A DNA stretch of 64,000 nucleotides from NCBI GenBank assembly GCA_035505375.1, contig DATJQV010000075.1, positions 10,673 through 74,672 of the forward strand, in the 5' to 3' direction. The DNA is from a bacterium. Its GTDB lineage: Bacteria > Hydrothermota > Tepidihabitantia > Tepidihabitantales > Tepidihabitantaceae. Positions 1 through 61,495 of this stretch are shown in pieces. Each line of letters starts with the position of its first letter. Position 1 is the stretch's first letter. A program made the position numbers and the translations under genes. Below the pieces are notes generated by a model, which had not been told where the DNA came from, did not search any database, and was given only the letters and a program-made list of their open reading frames with translations.

Positions 1-2
1 GC

Positions 3-533
3 GGCAACACGCTCATCAGCAACGGTACGAACGGCGCAATGACTGAAGTGACCGCCGGCGCTGACGTCGTCTGGCGCTACATCAACCCGGTCGTCGACCC
101 GGGACCCCTTTACCAGGGCGAGACAACCGGCGTACCGAACGTGGTGTTCCGGGCGACACGTTACTCTCCTGACTACCCGGGACTGACGGGCCGATCACTA
201 GCGCCGGGCTATCCCATTGAGTTGTATCAGACCCCGCGCTCCGGAATCAGCGAGTCCCGAGGCGCATCGACGCGGTTCGCCGGCCTTCACGCCAGTCCGA
301 ACCCATTTGGCCGGCAGACCACGATTCGCCTGAGCCCGTCGCACTCGGCATCGGTCGCGCTCGGCATCTACTCGGTGGCTGGTCGACTCATTCGAACGCT
401 ACCGGTGAACGGCAAAGAGGTCGTCTGGGACGGCGCAGACCAGGCAGGCACGCCGGTTGGCCGCGGTATCTACTGCTGTCGGCTGCAAGGCCCGGGTCTC
501 AGCGAGTCGATGAAACTGGTTAAGGCCGAGTGA
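3..533 (+). CDS. 3'-terminal part of a secreted lectin/beta-propeller protein (5' end cut by window edge); paralog of 762..2921 and 6156..8333; ends in a Por/T9SS C-terminal sorting domain
   Basis: The frame is open from nt 3 (GNTLISNGTNGAMTEV...). Its last ~170 aa align with the tails of the two full-length paralogs (VVWRYxNPV..., RYxPDYPGL, GYPIELY). The tail ...NPFGRQTTIRLSPS...GIYSVAGRLIRTL...VVWDGADQAGTPVGRGIYCCRL...KLVKAE matches the T9SS CTD pattern. Confidence 0.6.
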   Translation, partial: GNTLISNGTNGAMTEVTAGADVVWRYINPVVDPGPLYQGETTGVPNVVFRATRYSPDYPGLTGRSLAPGYPIELYQTPRSGISESRGASTRFAGLHASPNPFGRQTTIRLSPSHSASVALGIYSVAGRLIRTLPVNGKEVVWDGADQAGTPVGRGIYCCRLQGPGLSESMKLVKAE

Positions 534-588
534 CCCCGACCGCCGGATGACCCGATGATTCTATCTACGTCCAAACCGGCCAGGCGGC

Positions 589-616
589 TTGACGCGGCAG
601 AGCACATTGCTAGAAT
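589..616 (+). promoter_or_regulatory. sigma70-like promoter TTGACG-N16-TAGAAT; predicted TSS near 623 gives a ~140-nt leader for the 762 gene
   Basis: -35 TTGACG at 589-594 and -10 TAGAAT at 611-616, with a 16-nt spacer. The same architecture recurs upstream of several other genes in the window. Confidence 0.4.
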
Positions 617-761
617 CTCTCACGCCGAGCCGGAAGACAATCTGCCGTTAGGGTCTGTGAGCGGCTTGCAGGCCGCCGAGTCCGGCCGCGCTCGAAGTCC
701 GGCACTGCCGGGCAGTAGACCCCACGCCGAATTGCACGCACGACAAGCTAAGGAGTACGTC

Positions 762-2921
762 ATGACGATACGAAGGTATTCATGGTCCTTCGCGGCCCTT
801 CTAGTCGGGGTCGCGCTTATCGCCGGCCTCGCCGGCGCAGCCCCCGAGCCATGGGTCCACCCGGACGGGAGCATCCACTACTATGATGCGATAAACACGC
901 CGTCAGGCATCAATTGGAACGTCGCCTGGGATTCGGCGCTCGGTCACGGCGGCTACCTCGCGACCATCACGTCGCAGGCCGAAAACAACTTCGTATTCAG
1001 TCTGATTGACTCGGCCCGCTACTGGTATCAGCGGTTCGGCACCAACAAACTGGCCGGCCCGTGGCTCGGCGGCTCGAAGTACTTCGGCTACTCTGACCCG
1101 GACAGCGGCTGGCACTGGGTCACGAATGAGAGCATGGGTTATCGCAACTGGTCCATGGGCCAGCCGGACAACCAGGGTGGTAGTGAGAACGCATTGCACT
1201 TCGGCGAGTCGGTCGGGGTACGGTCACCGCACTGGGACGACCTGAGCAGCCTCGACGACTCGATTCGTGGCTTCGTGCGCGAGCTCTCGGCCGATTCGAC
1301 CACGGTCGGGCTTCGGTACTGGGACACCTCGGCCTATGCGGGCTACACGCTGTTCGGCAACAACAACGGCCACGACATCTACTTGATCGACAATAATGGC
1401 CGCAGCATCCACCGCTGGCGCGCCGCCGACAAGACTGTGGGAGCGCTCTACCTGCTCCCCAACGGGCTGCTGTCCCAGATCGGCAACCTGAGCAACCCCA
1501 GCTTCCTCAACGGCGGACGCGTGTCGCTCCTCGACTGGAACGCCAATAAGGCCTGGTCCTTCGACTATTCCGACAGCACCCACTGTCTACACCACGACGC
1601 CATCTGGCTGCCCAACGGACACGTGGCGGCGATTGCCTGGGAGCTGAAGACAAAGGCGCAGGCGATCGCGGCGGGACGCGACACGACCAAGCTGACGCAG
1701 GGCAAGCTCTGGTCCGAGGAGGTAATCGAGGTCGACACTGCGACCGACAGCATCATCTGGCAATGGCACATCTGGGACCACCTTGTCCAGGACTACGACT
1801 CGACCAAGCTGAACTACGGCGTCGTTGGTAACCACCCGGAGCTCATCGACCTGAACTGGACCACCAACTACTCACCGCAGGCGGCCGACTGGATTCACGC
1901 GAACGCCCTTGACTATGACTCGGCGTTCGACCAGATTATGTTCAGCGCCCGCGGGTTCAACGAAATCTGGGTCCTCGACCACGGCACGACAACCAAACAG
2001 GCAGCCACTCACACCGGCGGCCGCTATGGCCACGGCGGCGACCTGCTCTACCGGTGGGGCAACCCCCAAGCCTACCGCCGTGGCGACAGCAGCAACATGC
2101 TGTTCCACGCCCAGCACAACTGTCAGTGGATTCGGTCCGGCCTGCGGGGCGCGGGCGACATCATGGTCGTAGACAACGGCCTGCAGCGCAGGGACTCGCT
2201 CTACACGACGATTATCGAGTTCACCCCGCCGGTGGACTCTACCGGCCATTACCCGACGCTGGGACCCGGCCAGCGGTACGGCCCTACGGGTCCGAGCTGG
2301 CAGTACATCGCCACGCCGCCAACGTCCTTCTACACGCCGCAGGTGGGCAGCGCCCAGCGGCTGCCGAATGGCCACACACTGATTTGCGAGGGCACCAAGG
2401 GCCGGTTCTTTGAGATCGGCGCGGACAGTGTCCTGACCTGGTGGTATAGAAGTCCGGTCATCGATACTACACCGCTGAATCAGGGCGATACGATTGCTCA
2501 CACCGACCAATGGACGTTGAAGACCATCGTCCACCGATCGCCTCGCTACCCGCTAAACTACGCCGGGCTGCAGGGCCACGACCTGACGCCCGGCTACCCG
2601 ATCGAGGTCTATCAGACCAAGCAGTACACTGGCCTGGCGCAAGCACCGGTCGCGGGCCGAGTTCGCGTCGGGCTGGCCGCGAGACCAAACCCCTTTGGCC
2701 GGCGCACCGCAATCCGCTTCAGTCTGCCGCAGAAGACGCTGGCCGCCATCGGCATCTACTCGGTTGACGGACGGCTGATTCGAAGCTTCTCGACCACGGG
2801 CGATCAGGTAGTTTGGGACGGCGCTGACAATGCCGGAAGGCAGGTCGCGCGCGGCATCTATTACTGCCGGCTCCATGGTCCAGCTTCCAGCGCCGCGACG
2901 AAGCTGGTCAAGACGGAATAG
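762..2921 (+). CDS. secreted multidomain protein: signal peptide, C-type lectin-like domain (QPD motif), ASST-like (arylsulfotransferase-like) beta-propeller, T9SS C-terminal sorting domain
   Basis: The supplied ORF spans 555..2921, but AAGGAG at 750-755 lies 7 nt before ATG 762, and MTIRRYSWSFAALLVGVALIAGLAGA is a signal peptide. The CTLD is supported by WDSALGHGGYLATITSQAENNFVFSLID...WLGG...GWHWV...YRNWSMGQPDNQGGSENALHFGE...HWDDLSS. Propeller-type motifs are IYLIDNNGRSIHRW, HHDAIWLPNGHV and IIWQWHIWDHL. The C-terminus ...NPFGRRTAIRFSLP...GIYSVDGRLIRSF...VVWDGADNAGRQVARGIYYCRL...KLVKTE is a Por_Secre_tail-like domain. Confidence 0.75.
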   Translation: MTIRRYSWSFAALLVGVALIAGLAGAAPEPWVHPDGSIHYYDAINTPSGINWNVAWDSALGHGGYLATITSQAENNFVFSLIDSARYWYQRFGTNKLAGPWLGGSKYFGYSDPDSGWHWVTNESMGYRNWSMGQPDNQGGSENALHFGESVGVRSPHWDDLSSLDDSIRGFVRELSADSTTVGLRYWDTSAYAGYTLFGNNNGHDIYLIDNNGRSIHRWRAADKTVGALYLLPNGLLSQIGNLSNPSFLNGGRVSLLDWNANKAWSFDYSDSTHCLHHDAIWLPNGHVAAIAWELKTKAQAIAAGRDTTKLTQGKLWSEEVIEVDTATDSIIWQWHIWDHLVQDYDSTKLNYGVVGNHPELIDLNWTTNYSPQAADWIHANALDYDSAFDQIMFSARGFNEIWVLDHGTTTKQAATHTGGRYGHGGDLLYRWGNPQAYRRGDSSNMLFHAQHNCQWIRSGLRGAGDIMVVDNGLQRRDSLYTTIIEFTPPVDSTGHYPTLGPGQRYGPTGPSWQYIATPPTSFYTPQVGSAQRLPNGHTLICEGTKGRFFEIGADSVLTWWYRSPVIDTTPLNQGDTIAHTDQWTLKTIVHRSPRYPLNYAGLQGHDLTPGYPIEVYQTKQYTGLAQAPVAGRVRVGLAARPNPFGRRTAIRFSLPQKTLAAIGIYSVDGRLIRSFSTTGDQVVWDGADNAGRQVARGIYYCRLHGPASSAATKLVKTE

Positions 2922-2946
2922 CGCTTGCGTCGCTAGCGAACCTTAG

Positions 2947-4362
2947 ATGGTCGCTGCCGGCCGGGTAGCCAGAGCATTGCTTGTGCTCGCGCTGCCTGCG
3001 CTGGCAGCGACGACTTTTCACCGGCAGTGGCACTGGTACAAGGCCGACGACGGCCGCTCAGCCGCGCAGCTCAACGACAGCGGGTATATCACCAGCGGGG
3101 TGGTGCAGGAATCTTCCGGTCTCTACGGCGTGGTGCTCGCCCGCATCGACCATCTCGGCGATACGACCTCGGTGCAGCGCTTCCTCAATCTGGATTCAAT
3201 CGGCGGCTTCTCATGCCGCCTGCCGGACGGTGGCTACGCGCTGCTGGCTGAGTCCGCGACGAAGATTCTGGTACGCAGGTACGGTGCGGCAGGTGATTCA
3301 GCCTGGGAGTACCGGTCTGCGTGGGGCGGCCCGATTTCTGCTCTCATGCCGACCTTCGACGGCGGCTGCCTTGTGGCCGGTCGGATTCCTGACACGGCCT
3401 ACTCCATGGGCGCCATCAAGCTGGCAGCGGATGGCCACGAGGAATGGAGGCACTGCTATTACGACCCAACGGTTTCCGCGTCCTCTGCCTACGGCGCTTC
3501 CCAGACCCGCGATTCAGGTTACATCCTCTGCGGTGACGCGAATGACTATATGGGGTCCTATCTGCGACTGGTCCGGCTGACGCCGGGCGGCGATACGGTC
3601 TGGGCCAGAATCTACGCTGGCACGGTCGGCCCGATGCTCAGCGACGTGCGGGAGATGTCCGACAGCGGCTTCCTTGCCGTCGGGTACGTGTTCGACACCT
3701 CGGGCCGCAATGCCTTCTACATGATGCGCACAGCCGGGGCCGGCGACACGGTCTGGACCCGCCGCCTCGCGCCCGCGGGTGCGGCTGCTCAGGCAGCGGC
3801 CATGTGCGCAACCAGCGACGGCGGCTTTGCCGTCATCGGCGTCGCGGACTGGGGTGACTCAGCTCGCGCCTGGCTGGTCAAGACCAACGCCTTGGGCGAC
3901 ACGGTCTGGACCGCGGTCCTGCCCGGCTCCGGACATGAGGTAGGCAATGATGTCGAGCAGACCGCCGACGGTGGCTACGTGATTGCCGGCACATCGGACG
4001 CAGGCGGCGGCAGCATGCTGCTGATCAAGACTGACTCGCTGGGCTATGTGGCATATGGCATTGCTGAGGACAAGCCACTCGCGGTCTCCGGTCGCATCGT
4101 CCTGTCAGTCGAGCCAAACCCCGCGAGCAGTCTCGTCCGCATCGCCTGCTCCCTGCCCGGCAACGATGCGTCCCGCATCACCCTGACGATGTACGATGCC
4201 CTCGGCCGGAAGGTATTCGCATCATCCGGTCTCCGGTCTTCGGTCTCCGGTTCCCGCACTTCGTCCTTCGTCCTTCGAACTTCGTCCTTTCCCCCGGGTG
4301 TCTACCTGCTCCGGCTCGCGTCCGGCGGTAGCTCCGCAGTCCGGAAACTGGTCCTCCAGTAA
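2947..4362 (+). CDS. secreted beta-propeller-repeat protein (recurrent GDTVW[TA]R blades) with T9SS C-terminal sorting domain
   Basis: N-terminal signal-like MVAAGRVARALLVLALPALAAT. Blade-like motifs recur about 45 aa apart (AAGDSAWEYRS, GGDTVWARIY, AGDTVWTRRL, LGDTVWTAVL). The C-terminus is VEPNPASSLVRIACSLPGNDASRITLTMYDALGRKVF...GVYLLRL...RKLVLQ. Confidence 0.7.
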   Translation: MVAAGRVARALLVLALPALAATTFHRQWHWYKADDGRSAAQLNDSGYITSGVVQESSGLYGVVLARIDHLGDTTSVQRFLNLDSIGGFSCRLPDGGYALLAESATKILVRRYGAAGDSAWEYRSAWGGPISALMPTFDGGCLVAGRIPDTAYSMGAIKLAADGHEEWRHCYYDPTVSASSAYGASQTRDSGYILCGDANDYMGSYLRLVRLTPGGDTVWARIYAGTVGPMLSDVREMSDSGFLAVGYVFDTSGRNAFYMMRTAGAGDTVWTRRLAPAGAAAQAAAMCATSDGGFAVIGVADWGDSARAWLVKTNALGDTVWTAVLPGSGHEVGNDVEQTADGGYVIAGTSDAGGGSMLLIKTDSLGYVAYGIAEDKPLAVSGRIVLSVEPNPASSLVRIACSLPGNDASRITLTMYDALGRKVFASSGLRSSVSGSRTSSFVLRTSSFPPGVYLLRLASGGSSAVRKLVLQ

Positions 4363-4420
4363 CCGGCCCCGCTTCCCGTTGCCGGCTTGACGCCATGGCC
4401 GCGCCAGCTAGACTCTAACT

Positions 4421-5845
4421 GTGCGTATAGGCGCTATCACTGGAATCGCAATAGCCCTGCTCCTGCTGCCCGGGCCGGCACAGGCAACGGTCACCTTCCA
4501 CCGCCAGTGGCACTGGTACACACAGGATGCGGGCCGCTCCGTAGCCCAGCTCACAGACAGCGGGTACGTCATCAGCGGCGGCTTGCAGGAATCCACCAGC
4601 ATCTTCGGTGTCGTGCTCGCCCGCACTGATTACCGCGGCGACACGACCTCAGTGAAGCGCATCCTCAATCTGGACGCAAATGGCGGTCTCTCCTGCCGGC
4701 TGTCGGACGGCGGCTACGCGCTGCTGGCCGAGTCCGGCGCGAAAATCCTGGTACGCAAGTACAATGCGTCAGGTGACTCGGTCTGGGAGTACCGGTCTGC
4801 CTGGGGCGGCCAGCTTTCTGCATTCACGCCGACCTTCGACGGCGGTTGCCTTGTGGCCGGCCGGATTCCGGATTCGTCCCCGTACAACATGGGCGCCATC
4901 AAGCTGTCGGCGGACGGCAACCAGCAATGGGCGCGCCACTACCACGAACCGACCATGTCCATGTCATGGGCCTTTGGCGCTGCCCAGACCAGCGACTCGG
5001 GCTACATCCTCTGCGGTGAAGCGACCAACTACTCTACGACCGACGTGCGCCTGGTCCGACTCAAGCCCGGCGGCGACACGGTCTGGACCAGGCTGTACAA
5101 CGGCCCGGTCGGCCCGATGCTCAACGACGTGCGGGAGATGGCGGACAGCGGCTTTCTTGCAGTCGGGTACATGTTCGACACCTTGACCGGCAACCGCGCC
5201 CTCTACATGCTGCGCACGAACTCCCGCGGCGACACGGTCTGGACGCGACACGTCGCGGACACGTTTGCGGCTCGTCAGGCAACAGCCATGTGTGCGACCA
5301 GAGACGGCGGCTTTGCGATCGCCGGGCAGATTGGCTGGACTGACTCCACTCGGGCCTGGCTGGTAAAAACCAACGCCCAAGGCGACACGGTCTGGACCTC
5401 GGTCCTGCCCGGCTCGGGAGATGAGGTCGGCGTTGATGTCGAGCAGACCGCCGATGGCGGCTACGTGGTCGCCGGCACGTGCGACTCGGCCGGCACGCCC
5501 GACAGCCTTCTGCTGATTAAGACCGACTCCCTTGGCCACGTGACGTCCGGAATAGCCGAGGGAAGCCGGCCTTCGCCCGACCACATCGCTTTCCGGGTGG
5601 CGCCCAGCCCGGCGGGCGGGATCGCACGCATCGAATACTCGCTGCCGGGCGGCGCTTCGGCCACCCTGAAAATGTATGATGCCCTCGGCCGGCAGGTGTT
5701 CTCATCGTCCGCCCTCCCGTCTGCGGTCTCCGATTCCCACGCTTCGTCATTCGTCCTTCGAACTTCGTCCTTCTCCCCGGGTGTCTACCTGCTCCGGCTC
5801 GAGTCGAGTCGCGGCTCGGCAGAACGCAAGCTCGTCATCGAGTGA
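4421..5845 (+). CDS. tandem paralog of 2947..4362: secreted beta-propeller-repeat protein with T9SS CTD (apparent GTG start)
   Basis: About 60 % identical in arrangement (TFHRQWHWY, GDTVWTR repeats, ...MYDALGRQVF...GVYLLRL...RKLVIE). The upstream element TTGACG 4387-4392 / TAGACT 4409-4414 would make the mRNA nearly leaderless, so the start assignment is uncertain. Confidence 0.7.
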   Translation: MRIGAITGIAIALLLLPGPAQATVTFHRQWHWYTQDAGRSVAQLTDSGYVISGGLQESTSIFGVVLARTDYRGDTTSVKRILNLDANGGLSCRLSDGGYALLAESGAKILVRKYNASGDSVWEYRSAWGGQLSAFTPTFDGGCLVAGRIPDSSPYNMGAIKLSADGNQQWARHYHEPTMSMSWAFGAAQTSDSGYILCGEATNYSTTDVRLVRLKPGGDTVWTRLYNGPVGPMLNDVREMADSGFLAVGYMFDTLTGNRALYMLRTNSRGDTVWTRHVADTFAARQATAMCATRDGGFAIAGQIGWTDSTRAWLVKTNAQGDTVWTSVLPGSGDEVGVDVEQTADGGYVVAGTCDSAGTPDSLLLIKTDSLGHVTSGIAEGSRPSPDHIAFRVAPSPAGGIARIEYSLPGGASATLKMYDALGRQVFSSSALPSAVSDSHASSFVLRTSSFSPGVYLLRLESSRGSAERKLVIE

Positions 5846-5906
5846 CTTGGCCGCCGGTCTGCCGTCGAAGCGCGCCAGTTAGACATGCCTCACCAGCCCG
5901 CAAGTT

Positions 5907-5924
5907 CCGGCCCTGAGGGGCCGG
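5907..5924 (+). terminator. weak hairpin CCGGCCC-TGAG-GGGCCGG downstream of the 4421..5845 gene
   Basis: 7-bp GC stem found by eye. The following tract (CTTCAATTCC) is only weakly U-rich. Confidence 0.3.
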
Positions 5925-5985
5925 CTTCAATTCCAGTCACTTCCGGCCTCGGCCAGCACCGCCCCGGACACCGCCCCGGACGAGC

Positions 5986-6013
5986 TTGACAGGGCTGCGC
6001 CCGAAGTTAGAAT
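5986..6013 (+). promoter_or_regulatory. sigma70-like promoter TTGACA-N16-TAGAAT for the 6156 gene (leader about 135 nt)
   Basis: TTGACA at 5986-5991 and TAGAAT at 6008-6013. The architecture matches the promoter at 589-616 in front of the paralogous gene. Confidence 0.4.
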
Positions 6014-6155
6014 CGGTTGTCTCTACGAGACTCGGTTTCATGTCAAGGCCTATCGGCACTTGTCGTTCTTCGGGGCCGGTCGTTTCCCAACGCCCGACCC
6101 TGCTGTCGCGCGGAGCGGCGCGGCCGCTGACGCGCACGGGGCTGCGTAGCCGGTC

Positions 6156-8333
6156 ATGACGAAACTGGTTCCCGGCAAGCTCGTACCGGCCTGGGTCGTT
6201 TTGTCCGCGCTTCTTGCCGGCCCTGCCCTCGCTCAACCGGAACCATGGCTGAATCCCGACGGTACAATCCACTATTACGAGGCAGTGGCCGTGCCCGGCG
6301 GCATCACGTGGGACGGCGCCCGCATCCAGGCGCAGAATGACGGCGGCTACCTCGCGACCCTGACCTCCCAGGATGAAAACGACTTCGTCTTCTCTCTGCT
6401 TGATTCGAGTGCGTACTGGTACCGGAGACCCGGGTCCGGCACGCTGGCCGGACCGTGGCTTGGCGGCTACCAGCCGTCCGGTTCGCATGAGCCGGACAGC
6501 GGCTGGCGGTGGGTCACGCCCGAACCCTTCGGCTTTCGCAACTGGTCCACGGGCCAGCCGGACAACGAAGGCAACGAGAACGCGCTCCATTTCGGCGAGT
6601 CGGTCGGCGTGCGGGTTCCAACCTGGAACGACCTGATAAGTACCGATGACTCCATCCGCGGCTACGTGCGCGAGCTCTCGGCCGAAAGGACAACCATCGG
6701 CCTGCTGCAGGACGACAGCGCGGCATCTGCCGGCTACACTATCTTTGCTCCGTGCCTGTCGAATCATACCTACCTGGTCGACGACAAGGGACGCCTCGTC
6801 CACTCGTGGCGGAGCTGGTTCATGCCCGGGCTTGCGGCTTACTTGCTTGAGAATGGCGACTTGCTGCGCTCTGCGAACGTCGGTAACCAGTATTTTTGCA
6901 CTCCCGGCGCCGGCGGTCGTGTCGAGGAGTTCGACTGGAACGGCAACCTCGTCTGGTCCTTCCCGTACTCCGACAGCGTGCACTGCCTGCACCACGACAT
7001 CAAGCGGCTCCCGAACGGCCACGTGCTGATGATTGCCTGGGAACGCAAGACCCGGAACGAAGCCATCGCTGCGGGCCGCAACCCGGCCAGGCTCTGGCAG
7101 GGCATGCTCTGGCCGGACCACATCATCGAAGTGGACCCGTCCACCGACAGCATTGTCTGGGAATGGCACATCTGGGATCACCTGGTACAGGACTACGACC
7201 ATACCAAGGCGAACTACGGGGTCGTGGCCGACCATCCGGAGTTGGTGGACATAAACGCTCTTGCCGCCTGTGACCGCTGGGGCTCGGCCGACTGGAACCA
7301 CACCAACGCGGTTGACTACAATCCGCAGTTCGACCAGATACTCATCAGCGTGCGCCAGCTCTGCGAGGTGATGGTCATCGACCACAGCACGACGACCGAA
7401 GAGGCGCACGGGCACTCAGGCGGCAGACAGGGCATGGGCGGAGATATCCTCTACCGCTGGGGCAACCCCCGGAACTACGACGCCGGGGACGCTTCCGACC
7501 AGAAGTTCTACTACCAGCACAACGCTCGCTGGATCGAGCCCGGTCTGCCCGGTGCCGGGCACATCATGGTTTTCAACAATGGCCGGGATCGTCCCTGCTA
7601 CTTCACCGGCGGACGCCATCCTGAAGACAGCAGCTACTCCACGGTCGAGGAGTTCATCCCCGCCTGCGACAGCGCCGGCGCCTATCCGCGGCCGTCGCCG
7701 TACGAGCCGTTCGGCCCGACCGCACAGAGCTGGATCTACCGCGCCAGCCCGCCGAGCAGCTTCTACACGCCGTACATGGGAGGCGCGCAGAGGCTGCCCA
7801 ATGGCAACACGCTGACCAGCCTTGGTCAACTGGGCACGCTGGCCGAAGTCACCGCCGACACCCACGTTGTCTGGCGCTACGTGAACCCGGTCACGGGATG
7901 TGGCCCCCAGCGCCAAGGCTACGTGCCGAAAGACAGCACGAACTCCGTATTCCGGGCTGAACGTTACGCACCCGACTACCCGGGACTGGCGGGGCGGGAC
8001 CTGACGTCCGGCTATCCTATTGAGCTGTACGGACCGCTGTCCGCCGGTACGAAAGACTCTGAACGTGTCGTAGCCAACGCCCTCCTTCGTGTGAGCCCGA
8101 ACCCGCTTGGTGCCCAAACCACAATCCGCCTCAGCCTGCCGCACGCAGCTCCGGCCGAGCTCGGCATCTACTCGGTAGACGGTCGACTGGTCCGAACGCT
8201 GCCGGCAACCTCCAATCAGGTTGTCTGGAACGGCACCGACAACTCCGGGCAGCGTGTCGGTCGCGGCGTCTACTACTGCCGGCTGCAGTGCGCTGGTTAC
8301 ATTAAGTCGGTGAAGCTAGTCAAGGCCGACTAG
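6156..8333 (+). CDS. secreted protein: signal peptide, C-type lectin-like domain (QPD motif), ASST-like beta-propeller, T9SS C-terminal sorting domain (paralog of 762..2921)
   Basis: Signal peptide MTKLVPGKLVPAWVVLSALLAGPALAQPEPW. CTLD motifs GGYLATLTSQDENDFVFSLLD...WLGG...GWRWV...FRNWSTGQPDNEGNENALHFGE. Propeller motifs HHDIKRLPNGHV and IVWEWHIWDHL. C-terminus ...NPLGAQTTIRLSLP...GIYSVDGRLVRTL...VVWNGTDNSGQRVGRGVYYCRL...KLVKAD. The 492-aa antisense ORF 5937..7415 is rejected. Confidence 0.8.
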   Translation: MTKLVPGKLVPAWVVLSALLAGPALAQPEPWLNPDGTIHYYEAVAVPGGITWDGARIQAQNDGGYLATLTSQDENDFVFSLLDSSAYWYRRPGSGTLAGPWLGGYQPSGSHEPDSGWRWVTPEPFGFRNWSTGQPDNEGNENALHFGESVGVRVPTWNDLISTDDSIRGYVRELSAERTTIGLLQDDSAASAGYTIFAPCLSNHTYLVDDKGRLVHSWRSWFMPGLAAYLLENGDLLRSANVGNQYFCTPGAGGRVEEFDWNGNLVWSFPYSDSVHCLHHDIKRLPNGHVLMIAWERKTRNEAIAAGRNPARLWQGMLWPDHIIEVDPSTDSIVWEWHIWDHLVQDYDHTKANYGVVADHPELVDINALAACDRWGSADWNHTNAVDYNPQFDQILISVRQLCEVMVIDHSTTTEEAHGHSGGRQGMGGDILYRWGNPRNYDAGDASDQKFYYQHNARWIEPGLPGAGHIMVFNNGRDRPCYFTGGRHPEDSSYSTVEEFIPACDSAGAYPRPSPYEPFGPTAQSWIYRASPPSSFYTPYMGGAQRLPNGNTLTSLGQLGTLAEVTADTHVVWRYVNPVTGCGPQRQGYVPKDSTNSVFRAERYAPDYPGLAGRDLTSGYPIELYGPLSAGTKDSERVVANALLRVSPNPLGAQTTIRLSLPHAAPAELGIYSVDGRLVRTLPATSNQVVWNGTDNSGQRVGRGVYYCRLQCAGYIKSVKLVKAD

Positions 8334-9105: not shown

Positions 9106-10314
9106 ATGCGCAACGCTTCTGAACACATGGTGAAGAAAGACCCCCGACCGCTCGAACGTGCAGGCAGAATCGCTGCCGCACTGCTGTTGCTTGCCGGCAC
9201 AGTCGCGGCCGCGCCCGAATTGACCGTGGCCTATCACCTCGATGACCACGCGGCGCCGCTGTTCGACGCCTGCCTGTACCCGAAGGACTTCAGCGCCCGC
9301 TACGGCCTGTTCCTGAGGCAAGCCGAGCCACGGCTGAGTTACTCGCTGATAGACGGGAAGAGCAACACTCTCAAGTTACGCCTGGCCTACTGCGGCAGCG
9401 ATTCGGCGGTCCTTGCCGCGCTGCTATCCGGCCGCGCGCAGGTCGGGATCCTGGCATCCGAGGACGTGCTCGCGGCAGTCATCCAGGGGCAGCCGGTAAG
9501 AATCATAGCTCCACTTCAACGCGCCAGCGACGTGCTTGTCGTCAATCGTTCTGTTCCAGCCAGGAACTGGAAAGAGTTCGCCGCGTGGGCCAAGGCGCAG
9601 AACCGGCCGGTGCTAATCGGCTACCTGGGCCAGTACTCGATGGCAGCACTGGGATTCGCGCAGGCGCTCGAATGCGATGGCATAATCTACTCAACAACCC
9701 TACCCGGCAGCACTCCACACTCAAGCAGGCAGGGGTTTGGCGTCGGGGAACTGGGAACGAAAGACGTCCAGCTCATTCAGGCAGATGACCGTGCTGAGCT
9801 GGCAACGGAGCTCTCGTATGGCAGATTCGACGCGGCCTTACTTCAGGAGCCGGCGGCAACCTGGGTAAGCTCGCTCCGCGGGTGTCCGGCCATCGGCCGC
9901 ACCGACATCCTGCCGCCGGGTCGGTTCGAAGACCGCCCTGGCACTGTCGTTGCCGCGACCGAATCAACCATCGCCACGCGAGGCGATGACGTAGGCCGCT
10001 TCCTTGAACTGATGGCCGTTGCGACCCACTACGCGAACAACCACACTCGGAATACGCTTGCGGCGGTCAACTTGTGGCTAGGACTTTCACCAGAGCTGGA
10101 GAGCATTCCGCTCCGCAGCATGGGCTTCTCCTCGCGGCCGGACTTCTCCTTCACCGACGGCATCTGGAACTGGTACTTCGCCCTGCGCCTGAGAAACGCC
10201 CTGCCGCAGAACCTGGCTGGATACATGGAGGAGAAAGACTGGCTGGGTGTGCCCTATGACTCGCTGCTGCTCATTCCGGCGCTCGACCGCGCCGGCGCGA
10301 GAATCATACGCTAG
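9106..10314 (+). CDS. putative periplasmic substrate-binding protein (NMT1/SsuA/TauA-like fold, tentative)
   Basis: Signal-like N-terminus (AAALLLLAGTVAAAPELTVAYHLDDHAAPLF) and an alternating beta-alpha pattern typical of type-II periplasmic binding proteins. There is no diagnostic motif, so the product call is weak. Confidence 0.5.
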   Translation: MRNASEHMVKKDPRPLERAGRIAAALLLLAGTVAAAPELTVAYHLDDHAAPLFDACLYPKDFSARYGLFLRQAEPRLSYSLIDGKSNTLKLRLAYCGSDSAVLAALLSGRAQVGILASEDVLAAVIQGQPVRIIAPLQRASDVLVVNRSVPARNWKEFAAWAKAQNRPVLIGYLGQYSMAALGFAQALECDGIIYSTTLPGSTPHSSRQGFGVGELGTKDVQLIQADDRAELATELSYGRFDAALLQEPAATWVSSLRGCPAIGRTDILPPGRFEDRPGTVVAATESTIATRGDDVGRFLELMAVATHYANNHTRNTLAAVNLWLGLSPELESIPLRSMGFSSRPDFSFTDGIWNWYFALRLRNALPQNLAGYMEEKDWLGVPYDSLLLIPALDRAGARIIR

Positions 10315-15718: not shown

Positions 15719-15745
15719 CGAATCCTCCAGTCATGGTCCTTTGAC

Positions 15746-16228
15746 TCAATGCTCCTTACCCTTGTAGATAGAGAACTCCGGTCGTAGCGCTGCTATGGCA
15801 AAGGCCTCTTTAACTTGGCGCTCCTTCTCGTTCGTGTCCTCGAAGAAACGGTACCCACAGCTCTCTCTCATGAAGCGCTTGGCTTCATCGTGGTCATACG
15901 CGCAGTCAAAGTGCACCAAGGCATTGCGAAGCTGCGAAGCGTGCTTGTCTCCCATCAGGTGATTCTGGTACAGGCGTTGGCGCAAGTTCTTGGTTGTCCC
16001 GACATACACGATTCCTGCGTAAGGCCCACGCGTGATAGAGATGGCATAAATCCCACCGGTCGTGGGTAGCTTGCTTGGCACAAGCGTTCTGAACGGCCGC
16101 GCCCGCGACGCCAAGAAGTCGTCAAGCCATCGGCCAAGGGCTGCGAGTTGGGTCCTTGCGCGATCCCGGACGGGGCCGTTCAGTATTGAGTTGGTGGACA
16201 TGATGTGCGTCTCCTCATCCTGCTTCAC
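15746..16228 (-). CDS. GIY-YIG nuclease family protein
   Basis: GGIYAISITRGPYAGIVYVGTTKNLRQRLYQNH contains the GIY ... YVG ... R ... N signature. The start overlaps the HerA stop by 14 nt, suggesting translational coupling. Confidence 0.75.
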   Translation of the reverse strand: MKQDEETHIMSTNSILNGPVRDRARTQLAALGRWLDDFLASRARPFRTLVPSKLPTTGGIYAISITRGPYAGIVYVGTTKNLRQRLYQNHLMGDKHASQLRNALVHFDCAYDHDEAKRFMRESCGYRFFEDTNEKERQVKEAFAIAALRPEFSIYKGKEH

Positions 16229-17945
16229 TCCATTCCTTCACGAAGCGCGGGTCGTCCGATTTGGGTTCTGGGTCAGGCCGCACTACCGAGACTCGTTGAG
16301 GGAACGGAACTGCGTTGCCCATCACGACTGCCTGCCCTCTCGGCAGACCAGGTATCTCCTTGAGTGTCAGCTTGTCCGCAACTTCGGCACCCGAGGACAC
16401 CGCTTTCTGGTCTGCTTCATTCGTAAGCCTGAATACGAACCAAGTGCCACATTGAGCCAAGACAGTCGGCGACAGCTCGCCTGGCCTCTGCGTACATACC
16501 ATCAGCGAGAGTCCGAACTTCCGTCCTTCCTTGGCCAGCCGTTCGTAGGCCAGCGCCTGACGGACGCCCTCCTCTTCGCCGGGCAACTCCCTTAGGTAAT
16601 GGTGTGCCTCCTCTAGGATGAGCAGCGTGGGATGCGTCTTTCCAGGACCTCGCTTGAATATCTCGGATGCATACGCTTCCAAGAGTGAGCCTAGGACAAA
16701 TGGCATCAAGTCCTTTGTGACTGAGCTTAGGTCCACGAGGTGTACACGCCACCCCCTCTTGCCGCTCCTTTTCTTTCCGAAGAACTTCTCTACCATCATG
16801 CGGCTCTCACATGTCCAGTCGAGCTGCGCGTCACAGGGCTCACCTCCCTCAACGTCGACCACATCGAGGAACCTGGGGTCCTCCGTGAGTCCACGTATGC
16901 GATTGACTAGCGAGCAGACGTGTCCATAGAGAAAGGCATCCCGTGTCGGGACGTTGTTTCTGTCTCTCTTGAGTACGTACCACTCAGCCGCAAGACAGGA
17001 CAGCGCCCGCATGTGAGGCCATTGATCCGCCTTCTTGGCCTTGTTGGACCTGATGTCTTCGAGTGCCTTCAGCGCGAGGTCCGCGCCAGAGTTCCGGCAG
17101 TCGTCAAAGAGCTCGTTGGAGTCACGATCAGTGAGTCGCGCTCCTTCTTTGTCCGCTACAACGTATTGCAGATGCTCGACCGCAAACCGGAAAGCAGGCA
17201 TCTGTGCCCGGTCGCTGGGCAGCACCAGCCGCGCAAGACCATTGCGGCCAAGTGCGTAGTAGGGAATCCGATAGCCGCTTCCGAGTTTGGTTACCTTAAC
17301 ACGTACCCCTAGTCCAGATACCGCAGGCGCGTACTCACCATTCACGTCGAATATGATAATGCGCGAACGCGGGAGAGTGAACAGCTGTTGGGCTAGAGCT
17401 GCCACGAAGTGCGTCTTGCCTTGGCCAGTACCGCCCAGTACGGCCGAGTGCCGCGAGAGCAGTGAGTTGATGCCGACGACGACCTCTGCAGTTCCAGAGC
17501 GAGCATCCCATCCGAGGCTGAGCGGCCTGTCGTTCGCTGGCAGTGCATGTAGGGCCACGTGCAGTTCTGCGTCGGACAAAGGGAACGCCTCCGCGCCGAG
17601 CGCTGGCAGCTTCCATGATTCGGCCACGAAGTGCAGCGCTCCATTCTCTCTTTGGATATACCCAATAGACGCCGTGCTCATTTGTCTTAGAGGCTCGTCG
17701 AACGACTCTGTTGTACCGACACCGCGCGTGTGTGCTTCGCGCGGCTCCATGAACTCGACGGACTGCACCTTCACGATGACTAGAAGGGCACCCGTCGGGA
17801 TGCCCAGGTAATCTCCTGGTTGGGCTACCGAAGAAACGCCGCCCTCGTGCGCGGCCACCTGCCCTTTGTGTGTTTCAAGCAGATTGAGGACTATGGTGGC
17901 CCCGTCGACTTTCACAACGTAGCCTACGGCCGACCTGCCTCTCAT
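16215..17945 (-). CDS. herA: HerA-like (DUF87/FtsK-HerA superfamily) ATPase/helicase of a SIR2-HerA defence system
   Basis: Walker A LGGTGQGKT and Walker B TLLILEEAHHY. The HerA-typical MVCTQRPGELSPTVLAQCGTWFVFRLTNEADQKAV is present. The start overlaps the SIR2 stop by 4 nt. Confidence 0.85.
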   Translation of the reverse strand: MRGRSAVGYVVKVDGATIVLNLLETHKGQVAAHEGGVSSVAQPGDYLGIPTGALLVIVKVQSVEFMEPREAHTRGVGTTESFDEPLRQMSTASIGYIQRENGALHFVAESWKLPALGAEAFPLSDAELHVALHALPANDRPLSLGWDARSGTAEVVVGINSLLSRHSAVLGGTGQGKTHFVAALAQQLFTLPRSRIIIFDVNGEYAPAVSGLGVRVKVTKLGSGYRIPYYALGRNGLARLVLPSDRAQMPAFRFAVEHLQYVVADKEGARLTDRDSNELFDDCRNSGADLALKALEDIRSNKAKKADQWPHMRALSCLAAEWYVLKRDRNNVPTRDAFLYGHVCSLVNRIRGLTEDPRFLDVVDVEGGEPCDAQLDWTCESRMMVEKFFGKKRSGKRGWRVHLVDLSSVTKDLMPFVLGSLLEAYASEIFKRGPGKTHPTLLILEEAHHYLRELPGEEEGVRQALAYERLAKEGRKFGLSLMVCTQRPGELSPTVLAQCGTWFVFRLTNEADQKAVSSGAEVADKLTLKEIPGLPRGQAVVMGNAVPFPQRVSVVRPDPEPKSDDPRFVKEWSEAG

Positions 17946-19261
17946 AAGTCGATGCGTCCCCGCCGTACCTCTTGTGGCCCGATGCCGTTCTCCATCTCAT
18001 CGTCGTCTGTGGTCTCGTTGACGGCTGACAACTTCAGAAGTGGAGCTAGCAAGGCCCTAGCTCGTTCGCTGAACTCATCGAGGAGGGTCGGTTCAGGGAG
18101 GTCGCGGACGAACTCCTCGAAATGCGCGCGATCAGCGTTACCCACCACAGTCACCTGCGGCGATTGGAGCTTGACGAACTTGCTGAGCTCTGAGCCTGCC
18201 TTATCCAGGGACACTTCGTCTATCTTGGCAGCCTTATCAAACGAAACCTCAGGTGCGTAGATGATCATCTGTAGCGTCGGGTTCTGCAGCGCGCTTAGCA
18301 ACACTCGGTTGACGTGAACGTCACCAAAACCATAGCCGTTTATCAAGATCGTTGTCTGTGGTCTGGCTAGGAAGTCGCCGAGGCGTCTGAACAACTCGCC
18401 GAAGAGGTAGTCTGTGGTCTGCATGTACTTTGACGTCCCCGGCATGACTACGAGATCCGGCCATTCCGCACCGACCTCGTTGTCTACCAGCTTCTTCAAC
18501 TTTCCCCATATAGCATTGCATGCTACCTCGCGCACGTGGCCCTCCTGGTTCAGCCTCCATGTTAGAGAGCCGTGCAGCTTAGCCAGATAGAAGTGATAAG
18601 AACCGAACCTTGCTTCGCCGCGGGCAAGGACGTTCCTATAGGCAAGGTCGAAGTTGTGCGGTGCGAATGTCCGATTGTGAAGTCCGCTGAAGCCGTTAAT
18701 CGCCATGAGACGCATCGACTCGGCTGCCCACTCCAAGGCCAAGTCATAGTTGAGGGTGAAAGCCCACGGGGCGGGTTGCCCTGGCTGTCTCGATGCGACC
18801 AGTCGACCCAGGAGCTTGCGGTGCGTGGATAATGACTCTGCGTCGTCGCAACGCGTCGGATGCCCAAATAGCTTCCTGTCGAGCAGTGTAGCCGAGACCA
18901 GAGTCCTCAAGAGCGCCAACCTATGCAACCTGAGCTTGTCTAGACCTTTGGCCTTCTGCCTCTCCCACTCGGCCTCGGCAGTCCTCAATGTGTCCAGCAA
19001 AGTCTCGACGTTCACGCCGGCAGCGTCGCCATCCGACTTGGTCACGAACCCCTCGGCTATCAGCCATTGAAGGCCGTCGGGACTGGATTGCTCGAAGTCA
19101 GTCCACACTTCTGACATCGTCTTACCGCCGACCTCATGGGAGGCACCGGCTCCCAGCAGTACGCCCACATTCTGAAGCCTCATCGCAGCAGCAATGTGCG
19201 ACCGTAGCTCTCTCGTGGTCATCATTCTCTCGCCTCTTAGCGCGACGTTAGACTCAGCCAT
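17942..19261 (-). CDS. SIR2-like (SIR2_2 family) NAD+-binding/NADase protein, partner of HerA
   Basis: GVLLGAGASHEVGG matches the GAGxS Rossmann motif, FTLNYDLALEW matches TxNYD, and KLHGSLTW matches the HG motif. Its position immediately upstream of herA matches the known SIR2-HerA gene order. Confidence 0.8.
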   Translation of the reverse strand: MAESNVALRGERMMTTRELRSHIAAAMRLQNVGVLLGAGASHEVGGKTMSEVWTDFEQSSPDGLQWLIAEGFVTKSDGDAAGVNVETLLDTLRTAEAEWERQKAKGLDKLRLHRLALLRTLVSATLLDRKLFGHPTRCDDAESLSTHRKLLGRLVASRQPGQPAPWAFTLNYDLALEWAAESMRLMAINGFSGLHNRTFAPHNFDLAYRNVLARGEARFGSYHFYLAKLHGSLTWRLNQEGHVREVACNAIWGKLKKLVDNEVGAEWPDLVVMPGTSKYMQTTDYLFGELFRRLGDFLARPQTTILINGYGFGDVHVNRVLLSALQNPTLQMIIYAPEVSFDKAAKIDEVSLDKAGSELSKFVKLQSPQVTVVGNADRAHFEEFVRDLPEPTLLDEFSERARALLAPLLKLSAVNETTDDDEMENGIGPQEVRRGRIDL

Positions 19262-19549
19262 AGTGTCCTCCTAGAAAAAGAAACAGAACGCTACTCGCAT
19301 ACACAACCCTGTCATCTGCGGCTCAGTTCTGGGGGCTGGCTTGCCTGCATGGTAGAGCTCACACAGGGCAGGGCCAAGCTGGCTCGGATAGGACTGACTC
19401 CAGAGTGACGGCACGACCTTCCAATCACTTCCGCTCCAGGAACTGCCGGATGGCGGGGATGCAGGCGGCGAGACCGGCTCCGGTTCGCGGGCGGGCTTCC
19501 GTCACTTCCCTTCTGATGCGCTTCTGGAATCGCCCCGTAGCACACACCG

Positions 19550-23938: not shown

Positions 23939-24034
23939 GGAAGCTCAATGGAACACTCCCGGCATTCCGAGCCTCCATCGGGGGTTTGGCGAAGCTAAGT
24001 CTTTGAGGGCAAGGTCTTTGAGGACCTGCAGTTG

Positions 24035-61212: not shown

Positions 61213-61299
61213 TATTACCTCCCGCGCGCTTATGGCGCGCCTCATCATAGTCCGCGTCCTGCCCGTGTCAACGACCATGGGGTAGGCGACACGTCCATG

Positions 61300-61495
61300 C
61301 GGGAAACAGGGACTGTCCCGCGCTGAGTACGACGCAAGCGCTCCGAGAAACTGCGCTCGTTTTCCGCCATCTCAGCGACAGTCCCCATTTCCCAAGACGC
61401 AGAGGGCGGCCGTAGCCGCCCTCTCGAAGCTCGGATTGGGGCCACTCCCGCGACGCGTTCTCGCGTCGCCCCGTGGACGTGTCCCTTCGTACTAC
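61300..61495. repeat. second locus of the GGGACTGTCCC / CTCGCGTCGCYCCGTGGACGTGTCCC repeat family (compare 14064..14235)
   Basis: GGGACTGTCCCGCGCTGAG...GCGCTCCGAGAAACTG...CAGCGACAGTCCCCATTTCCC...CGTTCTCGCGTCGCCCCGTGGACGTGTCCCTTCG. Confidence 0.5.

Follow-up and report, generated by a model that had tools for sequence, protein, structure and literature searches.

Gene content of the locus

The window analyzed here is a stretch of 64,000 nucleotides from an uncultured bacterium whose closest relatives belong to candidate division WOR-3. Positions 3-8333 are filled by five genes for exported proteins, all on the plus strand. Three of these are paralogs that combine a C-type lectin domain (CTLD) with a propeller resembling that of aryl-sulfotransferases (AST) and a C-terminal domain (CTD), and the two genes interleaved with them encode propeller-CTD proteins. 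The features are as follows.

3..533, plus strand: gene 1, 3′ fragment identified by translation, with the last propeller blade, a linker and a T9SS-type CTD (roughly 294-530)
589..616, plus strand: promoter-like site TTGACG-16-TAGAAT upstream of gene 2
762..2921, plus strand: gene 2 (719 aa, NCBI HTW92360.1), with signal peptide (aa 1-26), CTLD (aa 27-177, nt 840-1292), AST-like propeller (aa 178 to about 633) and CTD (aa 641-719, nt 2682-2918)
2947..4362, plus strand: p471 (NCBI HTW92361.1), with signal peptide, seven-bladed beta-propeller and T9SS type A CTD (aa 390-471)
4421..5845, plus strand: p474, 67% identical to its paralog p471 and alike in architecture
5986..6013, plus strand: promoter-like site TTGACA-16-TAGAAT (11/12 matches) upstream of gene 3
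6156..8333, plus strand: gene 3 (725 aa, NCBI HTW92363.1), with signal peptide (6156-6233), CTLD (6234-6683), AST-like six-bladed propeller (6684-8039), linker (8040-8090) and CTD (8091-8330)
7596..7625, plus strand: ten-residue insert CYFTGGRHPE, including C481, found by alignment in the gene 3 lineage only

The gene 2 reading frame can be extended to position 555, but this longer ORF was rejected and the start placed at 762, because the promoter-like site lies inside the extension and the public annotation gives a protein of 719 aa. A second assembly of this locus (L085) contains gene 1 intact; there it encodes 711 aa, is 100% identical to the fragment in the window, and has a signal peptide, a CTLD with QPDNEGDENALHFGE and NWDDL, and a propeller, as in its paralogs. 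The preliminary description of three paralogs of this architecture was thus correct (711, 719 and 725 aa), and the architecture is very probably as described. It also correctly noted the cysteine-containing insert in the third gene (aa 481-490), which has a pLDDT of about 60 in the AlphaFold model and is predicted to be a disordered loop. The two genes at 2947..4362 and 4421..5845 had been overlooked.

The CTD of p471 was recognized by both PF18962 (34.7 bits) and TIGR04183 (32.6 bits). Its AlphaFold model (pLDDT 90.1) matched the CylK propeller in Foldseek (1.9e-16) and, at about 1e-8 to 1e-7, the Photorhabdus lectins PLL and PHL. A p471 ortholog adjoins an AST-like array in the WOR-3 genome CP070680.1 and in a second locus (L076), and the two lists of 120 best clusters share 28 identical longest-contig sizes, 14 of them below 12 kb. 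Proteins of the p471 type are a conserved partner of the CTLD-AST genes in WOR-3 genomes.

The fusion had been thought unusual in bacteria, which overstates the case. Of the best 120 clusters formed at 90% identity, nearly all match the window proteins in length and architecture, and those with a named source are labeled WOR-3 or unclassified bacterium. At 50% identity, the best 150 clusters include at least nine full-length and three truncated representatives that combine the CTLD with the propeller. Clustered at this level, the propeller core of bacteria and archaea falls into about 2,000 groups (2,049 at E<=1e-30). The lectin-AST design is common in WOR-3 and is already loosely annotated: NCBI names the window proteins aryl-sulfate sulfotransferase and T9SS sorting-domain protein. 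The three copies are old paralogs; each has orthologs elsewhere (76-85% identity) that are closer to it than are the paralogs in its own genome.

Predicted calcium-ligand residues of the lectin domain

As judged from sequence, each of the three paralogs carries a cysteine-free, long-form CTLD with an intact set of Ca2+ site-2 ligands, and the pattern QPD...E...W(N/D)D is present in 3/3. The ligand residues are located as follows.

1161..1241, plus strand: gene 2 Ca2+-ligand segment, with Q134-P-D136, E142-N143 and W158-D159-D160
6555..6632, plus strand: gene 3 Ca2+-ligand segment, with Q134-P-D136 (6555-6563), E141-N142 (6576-6581) and W157-N158-D159 (6624-6632)

The QPD-motif strings reported earlier, QPDNQGGSENALHFGE in gene 2 and QPDNEGNENALHFGE in gene 3, were found exactly; the WND motif reported with them holds for gene 3, but genes 1 and 2 have WDD. 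Single sequences scored below the Pfam Lectin_C cut-off of 22.6 bits (gene 2, 20.7; gene 3, 17.0), which by the preliminary description's own criterion would speak against a CTLD, and it was only profile and fold evidence that rescued the assignment. Family profiles matched solved CTLDs at 8e-14 to 3e-9, among them codakine (8e-14), MGL (3.6e-13) and mannose receptor CRD4 (6.6e-12), and the gene 3 model superimposed on the MGL and CD23 CRDs with TM 0.74-0.76 (human MGL CRD, 0.74). The modeled domain contains two helices and a long loop region. The canonical CTLD disulfides are absent from the family, and, when aligned with Endo180 CTLD2, gene 3 has E141-N142-A143 where that domain has the canonical E-D-C.

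In WOR-3 relatives, 83-100% have a residue with an oxygen donor (Asp, Asn, Glu or Gln only) at the five ligand positions, although E141 is A or S in about 14%. This pattern is consistent with Ca2+-dependent glycan binding by the CTLD, which we consider probable. The kind of sugar is less easily read from the motif. Galactose-type animal CTLDs have a stacking tryptophan in the loop after QPD, and inspection of the window sequences showed that this loop has no aromatic residue. Relatives switch among QPD (45), EPD (46), QPN (12) and EPN (5), and QPD is therefore a weak basis for the galactose-type specificity that was proposed. Nor was the suggested diversification of lectin specificity seen: the motif is unchanged, and the CTLD is the best-conserved domain between paralogs (67-79% identity versus 53-67% for the propeller).

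The CTLD could instead be a structural or oligomerization module standing in for the N-terminal beta-sandwich of AssT, or could bind a ligand that is not a carbohydrate. The E. coli enzyme (EcAST) is a homodimer with its beta-sandwich at the equivalent position (PMC13426309), and in the window family the highly conserved junction RELSADSTTxGL, together with the pTM of 0.82 for the whole gene 3 model, suggests rigid packing. The sub-threshold Lectin_C scores, the lack of disulfides and the degenerate Ca2+ motifs in CTLD-propeller relatives of other phyla (KPD/WAD in L007, QPS/WNA in L047) point the same way. Against this, Q/E and D/N exchanges of the kind seen in WOR-3 are tolerated at Ca2+-ligand sites, and the stand-alone homologs with PEP-CTERM tails resemble surface lectins. 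Either of these roles is considered improbable, and the glycan-binding reading is preferred.

The putative active site of the propeller and the C-terminal domain

On profile and model evidence, the propeller is assigned to the six-bladed, PAPS-independent aryl-sulfotransferase (AST/ASST) superfamily. PF05935 scored 58.1 bits in gene 2 and 80.3 bits in gene 3 (cut-off 24.2), and gene 3 also scored above the cut-off for PF14269 (55.9 bits). In the PDB, the gene 3 AlphaFold model (pLDDT 90.6) came closest in fold to Cpz4, a sulfotransferase from Streptomyces (2.9e-20), and to AssT of E. coli (1e-12). A profile alignment to the AssT references 3ELQ/4P04 placed AssT H252, H356, N358, R374 and H436 at gene 3 H280, H382, N384, R400 and H455; the catalytic position is known because the chain with the H436N mutation marks AssT H436. 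Positions in gene 2 (H278, H379, N381, R397 and H452) were transferred through the paralog alignment and motif positions.

2115..2117, plus strand: gene 2 H452 codon, equivalent of AssT H436 (sulfo-histidine)
6993..7520, plus strand: gene 3 AST-type active site, with H280 (6993-6995), H382 and N384 (7299-7307), R400 (7353-7355) and H455 (7518-7520)

These five AssT residues are exactly the EcAST active site given in a recent review (PMC13426309); the equivalent of EcAST T501 is ambiguous in the alignment of the window family. Counterparts of all five, the histidines included, are retained in each of the three paralogs, in agreement with the preliminary description of an enzyme-like propeller. 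Across 110 relatives, H280 and H455 are invariant (110/110), H382 is kept in 109 and N384 in 107, and position 400 is R or H in 95. Among propellers from many phyla, HHN(R/H)H is kept in 69/132 and HHNxH in 91/132, and in other phyla there are paralogs that retain none of the catalytic residues.

Such losses would fit a non-catalytic surface adhesin, with lectin and propeller both acting as binding modules for attachment to cells or substrates. Lectin-bearing T9SS cargo is known among adhesins (RemA), and the partner p471 is similar to propeller lectins. However, the catalytic histidines occur in 3/3 window paralogs and in nearly all WOR-3 relatives, which is hard to explain without catalysis, and the adhesin reading is very improbable.

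The chemistry itself is less secure. Sulfuryl transfer by the propeller has a chance only a little short of even. The window propeller is about 14% identical to EcAST, and many residues that are invariant in the family, among them H342, H360, D409-H410 and R434, have no AssT counterpart; the chemistry could therefore differ. An enzyme of another kind, for example a hydrolase, lyase or transferase, might have reused the fold and its histidines to act on a glycan or phenolic polymer, with the CTLD as its carbohydrate-binding module. The size of the family, its many accessory modules (in proteins of up to 3,548 aa) and its arrays of 5-7 tandem paralogs in Bacteroidales would suit such a role, the first two being typical of polymer-degrading enzymes, and the natural substrate of ASTs is not known (PMC13426309). 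Yet the full EcAST set is kept and strongly conserved, and both best fold matches are sulfotransferases. We regard this different chemistry as unlikely and retain sulfuryl transfer as the working assignment.

The CTD of the paralogs, an Ig-like domain of type A, had been assigned to T9SS, and TIGR04183 scored above its cut-off of 23 in all three (gene 1 fragment, 24.7 bits; gene 2, 25.7; gene 3, 28.2). The window has at least seven ORFs that match this model: p471, p474 and a sixth ORF outside the cluster are also above the cut-off, and a seventh is below it. The gene 3 model ends in seven predicted beta-strands. Export dependent on the CTD is likely.

The domain may instead serve another sorting or anchoring system, or be a plain FlgD-like Ig domain. 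PF18962 fell below its cut-off in the three paralogs, with FlgD_ig scoring higher (30.8 bits in gene 3), and CTLD-propeller relatives in a MAG labeled Brocadiaceae carry a different CTD. No T9SS core gene was seen in the 64-kb window, nor when 20-kb flanks were examined in two relatives from WOR-3, and no literature report of T9SS in WOR-3 was found. According to most reviews, T9SS is confined to Bacteroidota or to the FCB group, and WOR-3 stands outside the latter in NCBI taxonomy. On the other hand, tblastn matches in Bacteroidota and Ignavibacteriota extend through the gene 3 CTD (query residues about 175-723), and the maintenance of so many CTDs would be hard to explain unless some system reads them. 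Either alternative is distinctly unlikely, and a T9SS-like signal is preferred.

Proposed mechanism and comparison with known systems

We propose, tentatively and at slightly less than even confidence, that these proteins are lectin-targeted, exported sulfuryl transferases of the AST type. They would cross the inner membrane via Sec and then pass the outer membrane by a route that resembles T9SS and depends on the CTD, reaching the cell surface or the medium. There the lectin domain would anchor the enzyme to a glycan in a Ca2+-dependent manner, and the propeller would carry out ping-pong sulfuryl transfer, in which H455 (gene 3) would serve as the sulfo-histidine. Sulfate would be moved between extracellular sulfate esters, such as aryl sulfates, and hydroxyl acceptors, plausibly those of sugars. 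The lectin-AST fusion hints that such enzymes act on sugars, and DhAST sulfates sugars (PMC13426309); a glycan as the acceptor or donor is a possible but doubtful assignment.

AssT of E. coli CFT073 (EcAST; 3ELQ, 3ETS, 4P04) shares with the window proteins the six-bladed propeller, the five conserved active-site counterparts, export by a signal peptide and independence of PAPS, which makes sense outside the cytoplasm. In contrast to the window proteins, AssT is periplasmic, has a beta-sandwich in place of the CTLD, lacks a CTD and the many additional invariant residues, and requires a disulfide made by DsbL/DsbI. Cpz4 of caprazamycin biosynthesis (9KF4, 9KF6) was the best structural match (target TM 0.60), and this AST-type enzyme prefers sugar hydroxyls (PMC13426309), the kind of acceptor that a lectin fusion would suggest. 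It was not detected by sequence profile, and differs in consisting of a propeller only (453-463 aa), without lectin or CTD, and in belonging to an antibiotic gene cluster.

The window CTLDs resemble animal QPD-type CRDs (MGL/CLEC10A 6PY1, ASGPR, CL-P1 2OX9, codakine 2VUV) in the long-form fold, in the QPD motif, in a Glu-Asn/Asp pair ahead of beta3 and in the W-N-D ligand pattern. They differ in having no cysteine (A143 replaces the canonical Cys), a longer beta3-beta4 hairpin, WDD for WND in 2/3 copies, the non-aromatic loop and the variable motif. Close relatives are bacterial Lectin_C proteins that stand alone and end in a PEP-CTERM or MYXO-CTERM tail (e.g. P0129-P0202), many of which Pfam recognizes as PF00059. 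These are 45-50% identical to the window CTLD and share its cysteine-free pattern GGYLATITS...GPWLGGYQ...EPDGGWRWV...QP(D/N)N...E(D/N)xLHF...W(N/D)D, but they consist of a single domain (180-250 aa), lack an enzyme part and carry another kind of surface-sorting signal. Although the lectin domain of Flavobacterium johnsoniae RemA belongs to a different lectin family, and RemA is a mobile adhesin without an enzyme domain, it provides a precedent for a T9SS-secreted cell-surface protein that carries a sugar-binding lectin domain.

The five-gene cluster and its surroundings

Window positions 1-8333 hold five open reading frames, all on the + strand, and the unit is a five-gene cluster rather than three isolated genes. 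The preliminary description had accounted for three paralogues (genes 1-3), each encoding a C-type lectin-like domain (CTLD), a propeller resembling that of the PAPS-independent aryl sulfotransferases (ASTs) and a T9SS-type C-terminal domain (CTD), and had missed the two interleaved propeller-CTD genes, p471 and p474.

3..533, + strand: gene 1, 3′ fragment
589-616: promoter-like site TTGACG-16-TAGAAT, inside the longer gene 2 reading frame from 555
762..2921, + strand: gene 2, 719 aa, NCBI HTW92360.1
2947..4362, + strand: p471, 471 aa, NCBI HTW92361.1
4421..5845, + strand: p474, 474 aa
5986-6013: second promoter-like site, ahead of gene 3
6156..8333, + strand: gene 3, 725 aa, NCBI HTW92363.1

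A gene 2 start at 555, giving 788 aa, was rejected, since the promoter-like sequence at 589-616 would fall within it and the public call is 719 aa. The NCBI names are 'aryl-sulfate sulfotransferase' for HTW92360.1 and HTW92363.1 and 'T9SS type A sorting domain-containing protein' for HTW92361.1, and, of the closest relatives, those with a named source are assigned to candidate division WOR-3 or listed as unclassified bacterium.

Exact look-ups recovered this locus from three further assemblies. Gene 1 is intact in the ENA contig k141_2358164 (locus L085, 1655-3790), where its 711-aa product matches the window fragment at 100% identity and has the architecture of genes 2 and 3. The JGI contig Ga0335069_10005888 (locus L001) carries a frameshifting deletion at about 2620-2650, within GGDILYRWGNP, through which DILYRWGNP is lost. 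Because the frameshift is found in the JGI contig only and the ENA copy is intact, the lesion is specific to one assembly or strain, and the reading of gene 1 as a pseudogene was rejected; the frameshift reflects strain variation or else a misassembly of a conserved motif.

The p471 and p474 proteins share 67% identity. The AlphaFold model of p471 (pLDDT 90.1) is a seven-bladed propeller followed by a CTD, and in structure it came closest to the propeller of CylK (1.9e-16) and to the PLL/PHL propeller lectins of Photorhabdus (about 1e-8 to 1e-7). An orthologue of p471/p474 lies immediately after an array of AST-like paralogues in the complete WOR-3 genome CP070680.1 (44% identity) and immediately after a CTLD-AST gene at another locus, L076 (70-73% identity). 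When the top-120 cluster lists for the CTLD-AST protein and for p471 were compared, 28 of the values given for a cluster's longest contig occurred in both, 14 of them under 12 kb. The CTLD-AST gene and the p471-type gene are thus a conserved gene pair. A distant p471/p474 relative (27-30% identity) is also present in the Bathyarchaeota genome CP070683.1 (L060, 19885-21021), with a gene for an AST-like propeller about 8 kb away, and given this locus the propeller gene pairing may extend beyond WOR-3.

Clustering of the neighbourhoods of 80 loci from many phyla returned generic neighbours only (LytTR regulator, histidine kinase, ECF sigma factor, ABC ATPase) and no functional clue. Directly downstream of the cluster, 9106..10314 (+) encodes an NMT1/SsuA-type periplasmic binding protein; it was rejected as a link to sulfur metabolism because its TIGR01728 match, at 22.9 bits, is far below the cut-off of 163.5. 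Other features observed in the window are listed here.

15092-25432, - strand: defence island
16215..17945, - strand: HerA (PADLOC HerA 1.9e-243), overlapping SIR2
17942..19261, - strand: SIR2 (6.9e-157), with HerA a SIR2-HerA pair
19550..23938, - strand: fusion of SF1 helicase and MTES_1575/DUF559 nuclease, 1,462 aa (PDC-S37 2.6e-90, Hhe 1.8e-49)
24386..25432, - strand: Fic protein (SoFic 5.8e-33)
41114-45459, - strand: B12-dependent methionine synthase (1,102 aa) adjoining MTHFR
47268-49562, + strand: hydrogenase maturation factor HypF
49833..51218: dnaA
52473..54752: 759-aa protein with five PAS domains and no recognised output domain
59324-59990, + strand: four tRNA genes, Glu-TTC, Gly-GCC, Cys-GCA and Leu-TAA

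For the defence island, a weak GIY-YIG gene was called immediately upstream in locus L002. The G+C content dips to 0.558 at 50-52 kb, compared with about 0.62-0.65 around it, and a replication origin may lie near dnaA and this dip (49833-52000).

The lectin domain and the AST-like propeller

By the score threshold that the preliminary description had itself proposed for the lectin domain, the single sequences fail: PF00059 Lectin_C gave 20.7 bits for gene 2 and 17.0 bits for gene 3, below the gathering score of 22.6 bits. The identity of the CTLD is nevertheless secure, as it was upheld by profile matches, by the fold of the model, by stand-alone homologues that Pfam recognises and by alignment to CTLD2 of Endo180. 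A family profile (A4) matched the solved CTLDs of mosGCTL-1 (5.1e-14), codakine (8e-14), MGL (3.6e-13) and mannose receptor CRD4 (6.6e-12), and the profile of 110 aligned full-length relatives (A2) matched codakine at 2.8e-9. A precomputed PF00059 match is present in some close relatives (P0006, P0028, P0065) and in many stand-alone homologues; the latter are 180-250 aa long and 45-50% identical, and several end in PEP-CTERM or MYXO-CTERM tails.

The AlphaFold model of gene 3 has a mean pLDDT of 90.6 and a pTM of 0.82, with pLDDT values of 88-97 over residues 31-180. Its region 27-176 matches the CTLD fold (two helices, beta0-beta5 and a long loop), with helices at 52-61 and 72-80, an unstructured loop at 106-142, and strands at 143-150, 157-160 and 169-174. 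Foldseek placed it close to the CRD of MGL (TM 0.74) and to CD23 (TM 0.76), at 22-26% identity. A CTLD of the intimin, DGR or FGE type was rejected, since all the profile matches were canonical long-form animal-type CRDs with a Ca2+ ligand pattern.

In the profile alignment to Endo180 CTLD2, E141-N142-A143 of gene 3 falls on the canonical E-D-C and the WND on WND, so that the predicted Ca2+ site-2 ligands, at the level of sequence, are Q134, D136, E141, N158 and D159. One pairwise alignment had suggested E148 (in FGES) as the canonical Ca2+ glutamate; E141 was preferred on account of the profile alignment to E-D-C, the start of beta3 at 143 and the family pattern E-(D/N)-x-L-H-F. The preliminary description had assigned QPD and WND motifs to the paralogues. 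The Ca2+ ligand pattern holds in all three, but WND is limited to gene 3, with genes 1 and 2 having Asp where WND has Asn. Across the family the ligand positions are occupied by Asp, Asn, Glu or Gln alone in 83-100% of sequences, and the tripeptide alternates among relatives between QPD (45), EPD (46), QPN (12) and EPN (5). In two CTLD-propeller relatives outside WOR-3 (L007 and L047) the Ca2+ motifs are degenerate. The CTLDs of the three paralogues have no cysteines, as is the case in 81 of the 110 relatives, and the conserved canonical disulfides are therefore absent.

The assignment of an ASST-like propeller stood, as both Pfam models scored above their cut-offs: PF05935 (cut-off 24.2 bits) gave 58.1 bits for gene 2 and 80.3 bits for gene 3, and PF14269 (cut-off 27 bits) gave 30.6 and 55.9 bits. 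The propeller in the gene 3 model consists of 24 strands, four in each of six groups, and one strand that closes it, and the best PDB matches to the model were Streptomyces Cpz4 (2.9e-20) and E. coli AssT (EcAST; 1e-12). A single-sequence search of the PDB missed AssT, the match requiring a family profile. The propeller-only profile (A3) aligned to AssT over residues 177-527, with the catalytic position marked by the H436N mutant chain (4P04). The active site of EcAST consists of H252, H356, N358, R374 and H436 together with T501 (2026 review, PMC13426309).

Counterparts of EcAST active-site residues in gene 3 (A3 profile alignment) and their conservation among 110 relatives
AssT H252: gene 3 H280, 110 relatives
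AssT H356: gene 3 H382, 109 relatives
AssT N358: gene 3 N384, 107 relatives
AssT R374: gene 3 R400, 95 relatives (R or H)
AssT H436 (catalytic): gene 3 H455, 110 relatives

The equivalents of these five residues are kept in genes 1, 2 and 3, and the propeller active-site histidines that the preliminary description proposed to look for (counterparts of H252, H356 and H436) were found in all three paralogues. The counterpart of T501 is ambiguous: it falls on M541 in an alignment that may be off by one residue, and at the adjoining position 542 gene 3 has Gly where 70 of the 110 relatives have Ser. A main rival to sulfuryl transfer is that a different chemistry takes place on the same propeller fold. 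The retained set of three histidines, Asn and Arg argues for the AST reaction.

The C-terminal domain and proposed export

TIGR04183 exceeded its cut-off of 23 bits in genes 1-3 (24.7, 25.7 and 28.2 bits), which supports the earlier assignment of a T9SS CTD, and also in p471 (32.6) and p474 (30.7), so that all five proteins of the cluster score above it. Against PF18962 Por_Secre_tail (cut-off 27 bits), gene 1 (14.4 bits) and gene 3 (14.0 bits) were below the cut-off, gene 2 had no listed match, and p471 (34.7) and p474 (31.0 bits) passed; gene 3 passed FlgD_ig with 30.8 bits. The gene 3 model has seven beta-strands between residues 643 and 723, forming an Ig-like sandwich at the extreme C-terminus. 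At the other end, a hydrophobic helix at residues 10-20, followed by ALA/QPEPW, is a putative Sec signal peptide. Two further TIGR04183 matches, at 60094..61278 (-; 29.6 bits, exceeding the cut-off) and 61492..63234 (-; 18.8 bits, short of it), are in proteins with no other recognisable domain, which gives seven matching reading frames within 64 kb, six of them above the cut-off.

Pfam and NCBIfam scans found no T9SS core gene among 25 other large reading frames of the window, and the 20-kb flanks in two WOR-3 relatives likewise contained none. No report of a T9SS in WOR-3 was found in the literature, and in the NCBI taxonomy WOR-3 (Caldifarciminota) sits immediately below Pseudomonadati, outside the FCB group. 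For these reasons we infer the export route of the cluster proteins from the C-terminal signal alone. The main rival here is that the CTD is read by something other than a T9SS, which would agree with the results for core genes; the TIGR04183 scores of all five proteins favour a T9SS-like route.

Distribution, predicted mechanism and comparison with known systems

The preliminary description had called this architecture unusual in bacteria. Our data indicate that it is common in WOR-3: among the best 120 clusters (90% identity) found with gene 3, nearly all are 700-750 aa long, with 89-100% query cover. When 1.84 billion representatives (50% identity) were scanned in full with HMMER, 2,049 proteins had E<=1e-30. 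Among the best 150 of these, the alignment begins at the CTLD in at least nine full-length and three truncated proteins, and in several of them the C-terminal domain is a different one. In GTDB species genomes, the propeller core (residues about 175-625) was found at 40-58% identity in at least 598 loci, from Bacteroidota, Ignavibacteriota, KSB1, Calditrichota, Fibrobacterota, Marinimicrobia, Chloroflexota, Planctomycetota, Acidobacteriota, Thermoplasmatota and Bathyarchaeota. With tblastn, the alignment to gene 3 extends through its C-terminal domain in Bacteroidota and related groups.

Tandem arrays are usual, with two or more copies in 33 of 75 loci and up to seven in Bacteroidales; arrays of 5-7 AST-like propeller paralogues were seen in Bacteroidales/Bacteroidota MAGs (L032, L048, L052, L063, L081). 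The catalytic signature is HHN(R/H)H in 69 and HHNxH in 91 of the 132 propellers from all loci, and some array members have no AST catalytic residue at all (patterns such as NTGA- and SSYCS). Such signature-less propellers may have become pseudo-enzymes or taken on a new function. Within the window, identity between the paralogues is highest in the CTLD (67-79%), followed by the propeller (53-67%) and the CTD (53-61%). The suggestion that the paralogues had diversified in specificity is not borne out in the lectin motif, the CTLD being the best conserved domain. Each paralogue has relatives in other metagenomes (77%, 76% and 85%) that are closer to it than the copies in its own genome, which indicates that the copies are old retained lineages.

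In summary, the initial observation is confirmed, with corrections, and its interpretation is partly supported. The window proteins belong to a known enzyme superfamily, as a variant with a fused lectin and a CTD tag that is common in one candidate phylum; they are already deposited and automatically annotated, have never been studied experimentally, and are nothing categorically new. The finding is a domain-architecture observation, and a lead rather than a discovery. A literature search found nothing on a CTLD-AST fusion or on this AST-like propeller subfamily, which comprises about 2,000 clusters at 50% identity in bacteria and archaea and keeps the AST catalytic set. PAPS-independent ASTs serve as biocatalysts, with the natural donor unidentified and the natural acceptors unknown for most (PMC13426309). 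The WOR-3 fusion to a Ca2+-type lectin, with its linked second propeller, provides a testable hypothesis of carbohydrate acceptors, and the window adds evidence that T9SS-type sorting domains are heavily used outside Bacteroidota, in a phylum with no reported T9SS.

In the best-supported reading of the mechanism, the proteins would be exported by Sec and then cross the outer membrane in a CTD-dependent manner, the lectin domain would dock on a glycan in a Ca2+-dependent manner, and the propeller would carry out PAPS-independent ping-pong sulfuryl transfer via sulfo-H455. PAPS-independence would fit an extracellular site, where there is no nucleotide cofactor. We regard as improbable the full account of a very large family of extracellular PAPS-independent sulfotransferases with glycan acceptors or donors, a seven-bladed partner, sulfate shuttling and T9SS-like export. 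If it were true, the physiological substrates of AST-type enzymes, which have escaped identification for more than 40 years, would have their first clue in the lectin fusion; anaerobic bacteria would move sulfate esters between extracellular pools of phenolics and carbohydrates; and T9SS-like export would occur in a phylum in which none has been described.

In terms of known systems, the N-terminal beta-sandwich of EcAST is replaced by the CTLD in the window proteins. This exchange suits the remaining main rival, in which the CTLD is structural and not sugar-binding, standing in for the beta-sandwich; the conservation of the Ca2+ ligand positions within WOR-3 argues against it. Cpz4 is likewise without the N-terminal beta-sandwich, so that domain is not universal among ASTs. 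Cpz4 prefers sugar hydroxyls and DhAST sulfates sugars (PMC13426309), which makes a lectin-targeted AST acting on carbohydrates plausible by analogy. The sulfation of a sugar hydroxyl by Cpz4, the best structural match, agrees with the hypothesis of a carbohydrate acceptor for the window proteins.
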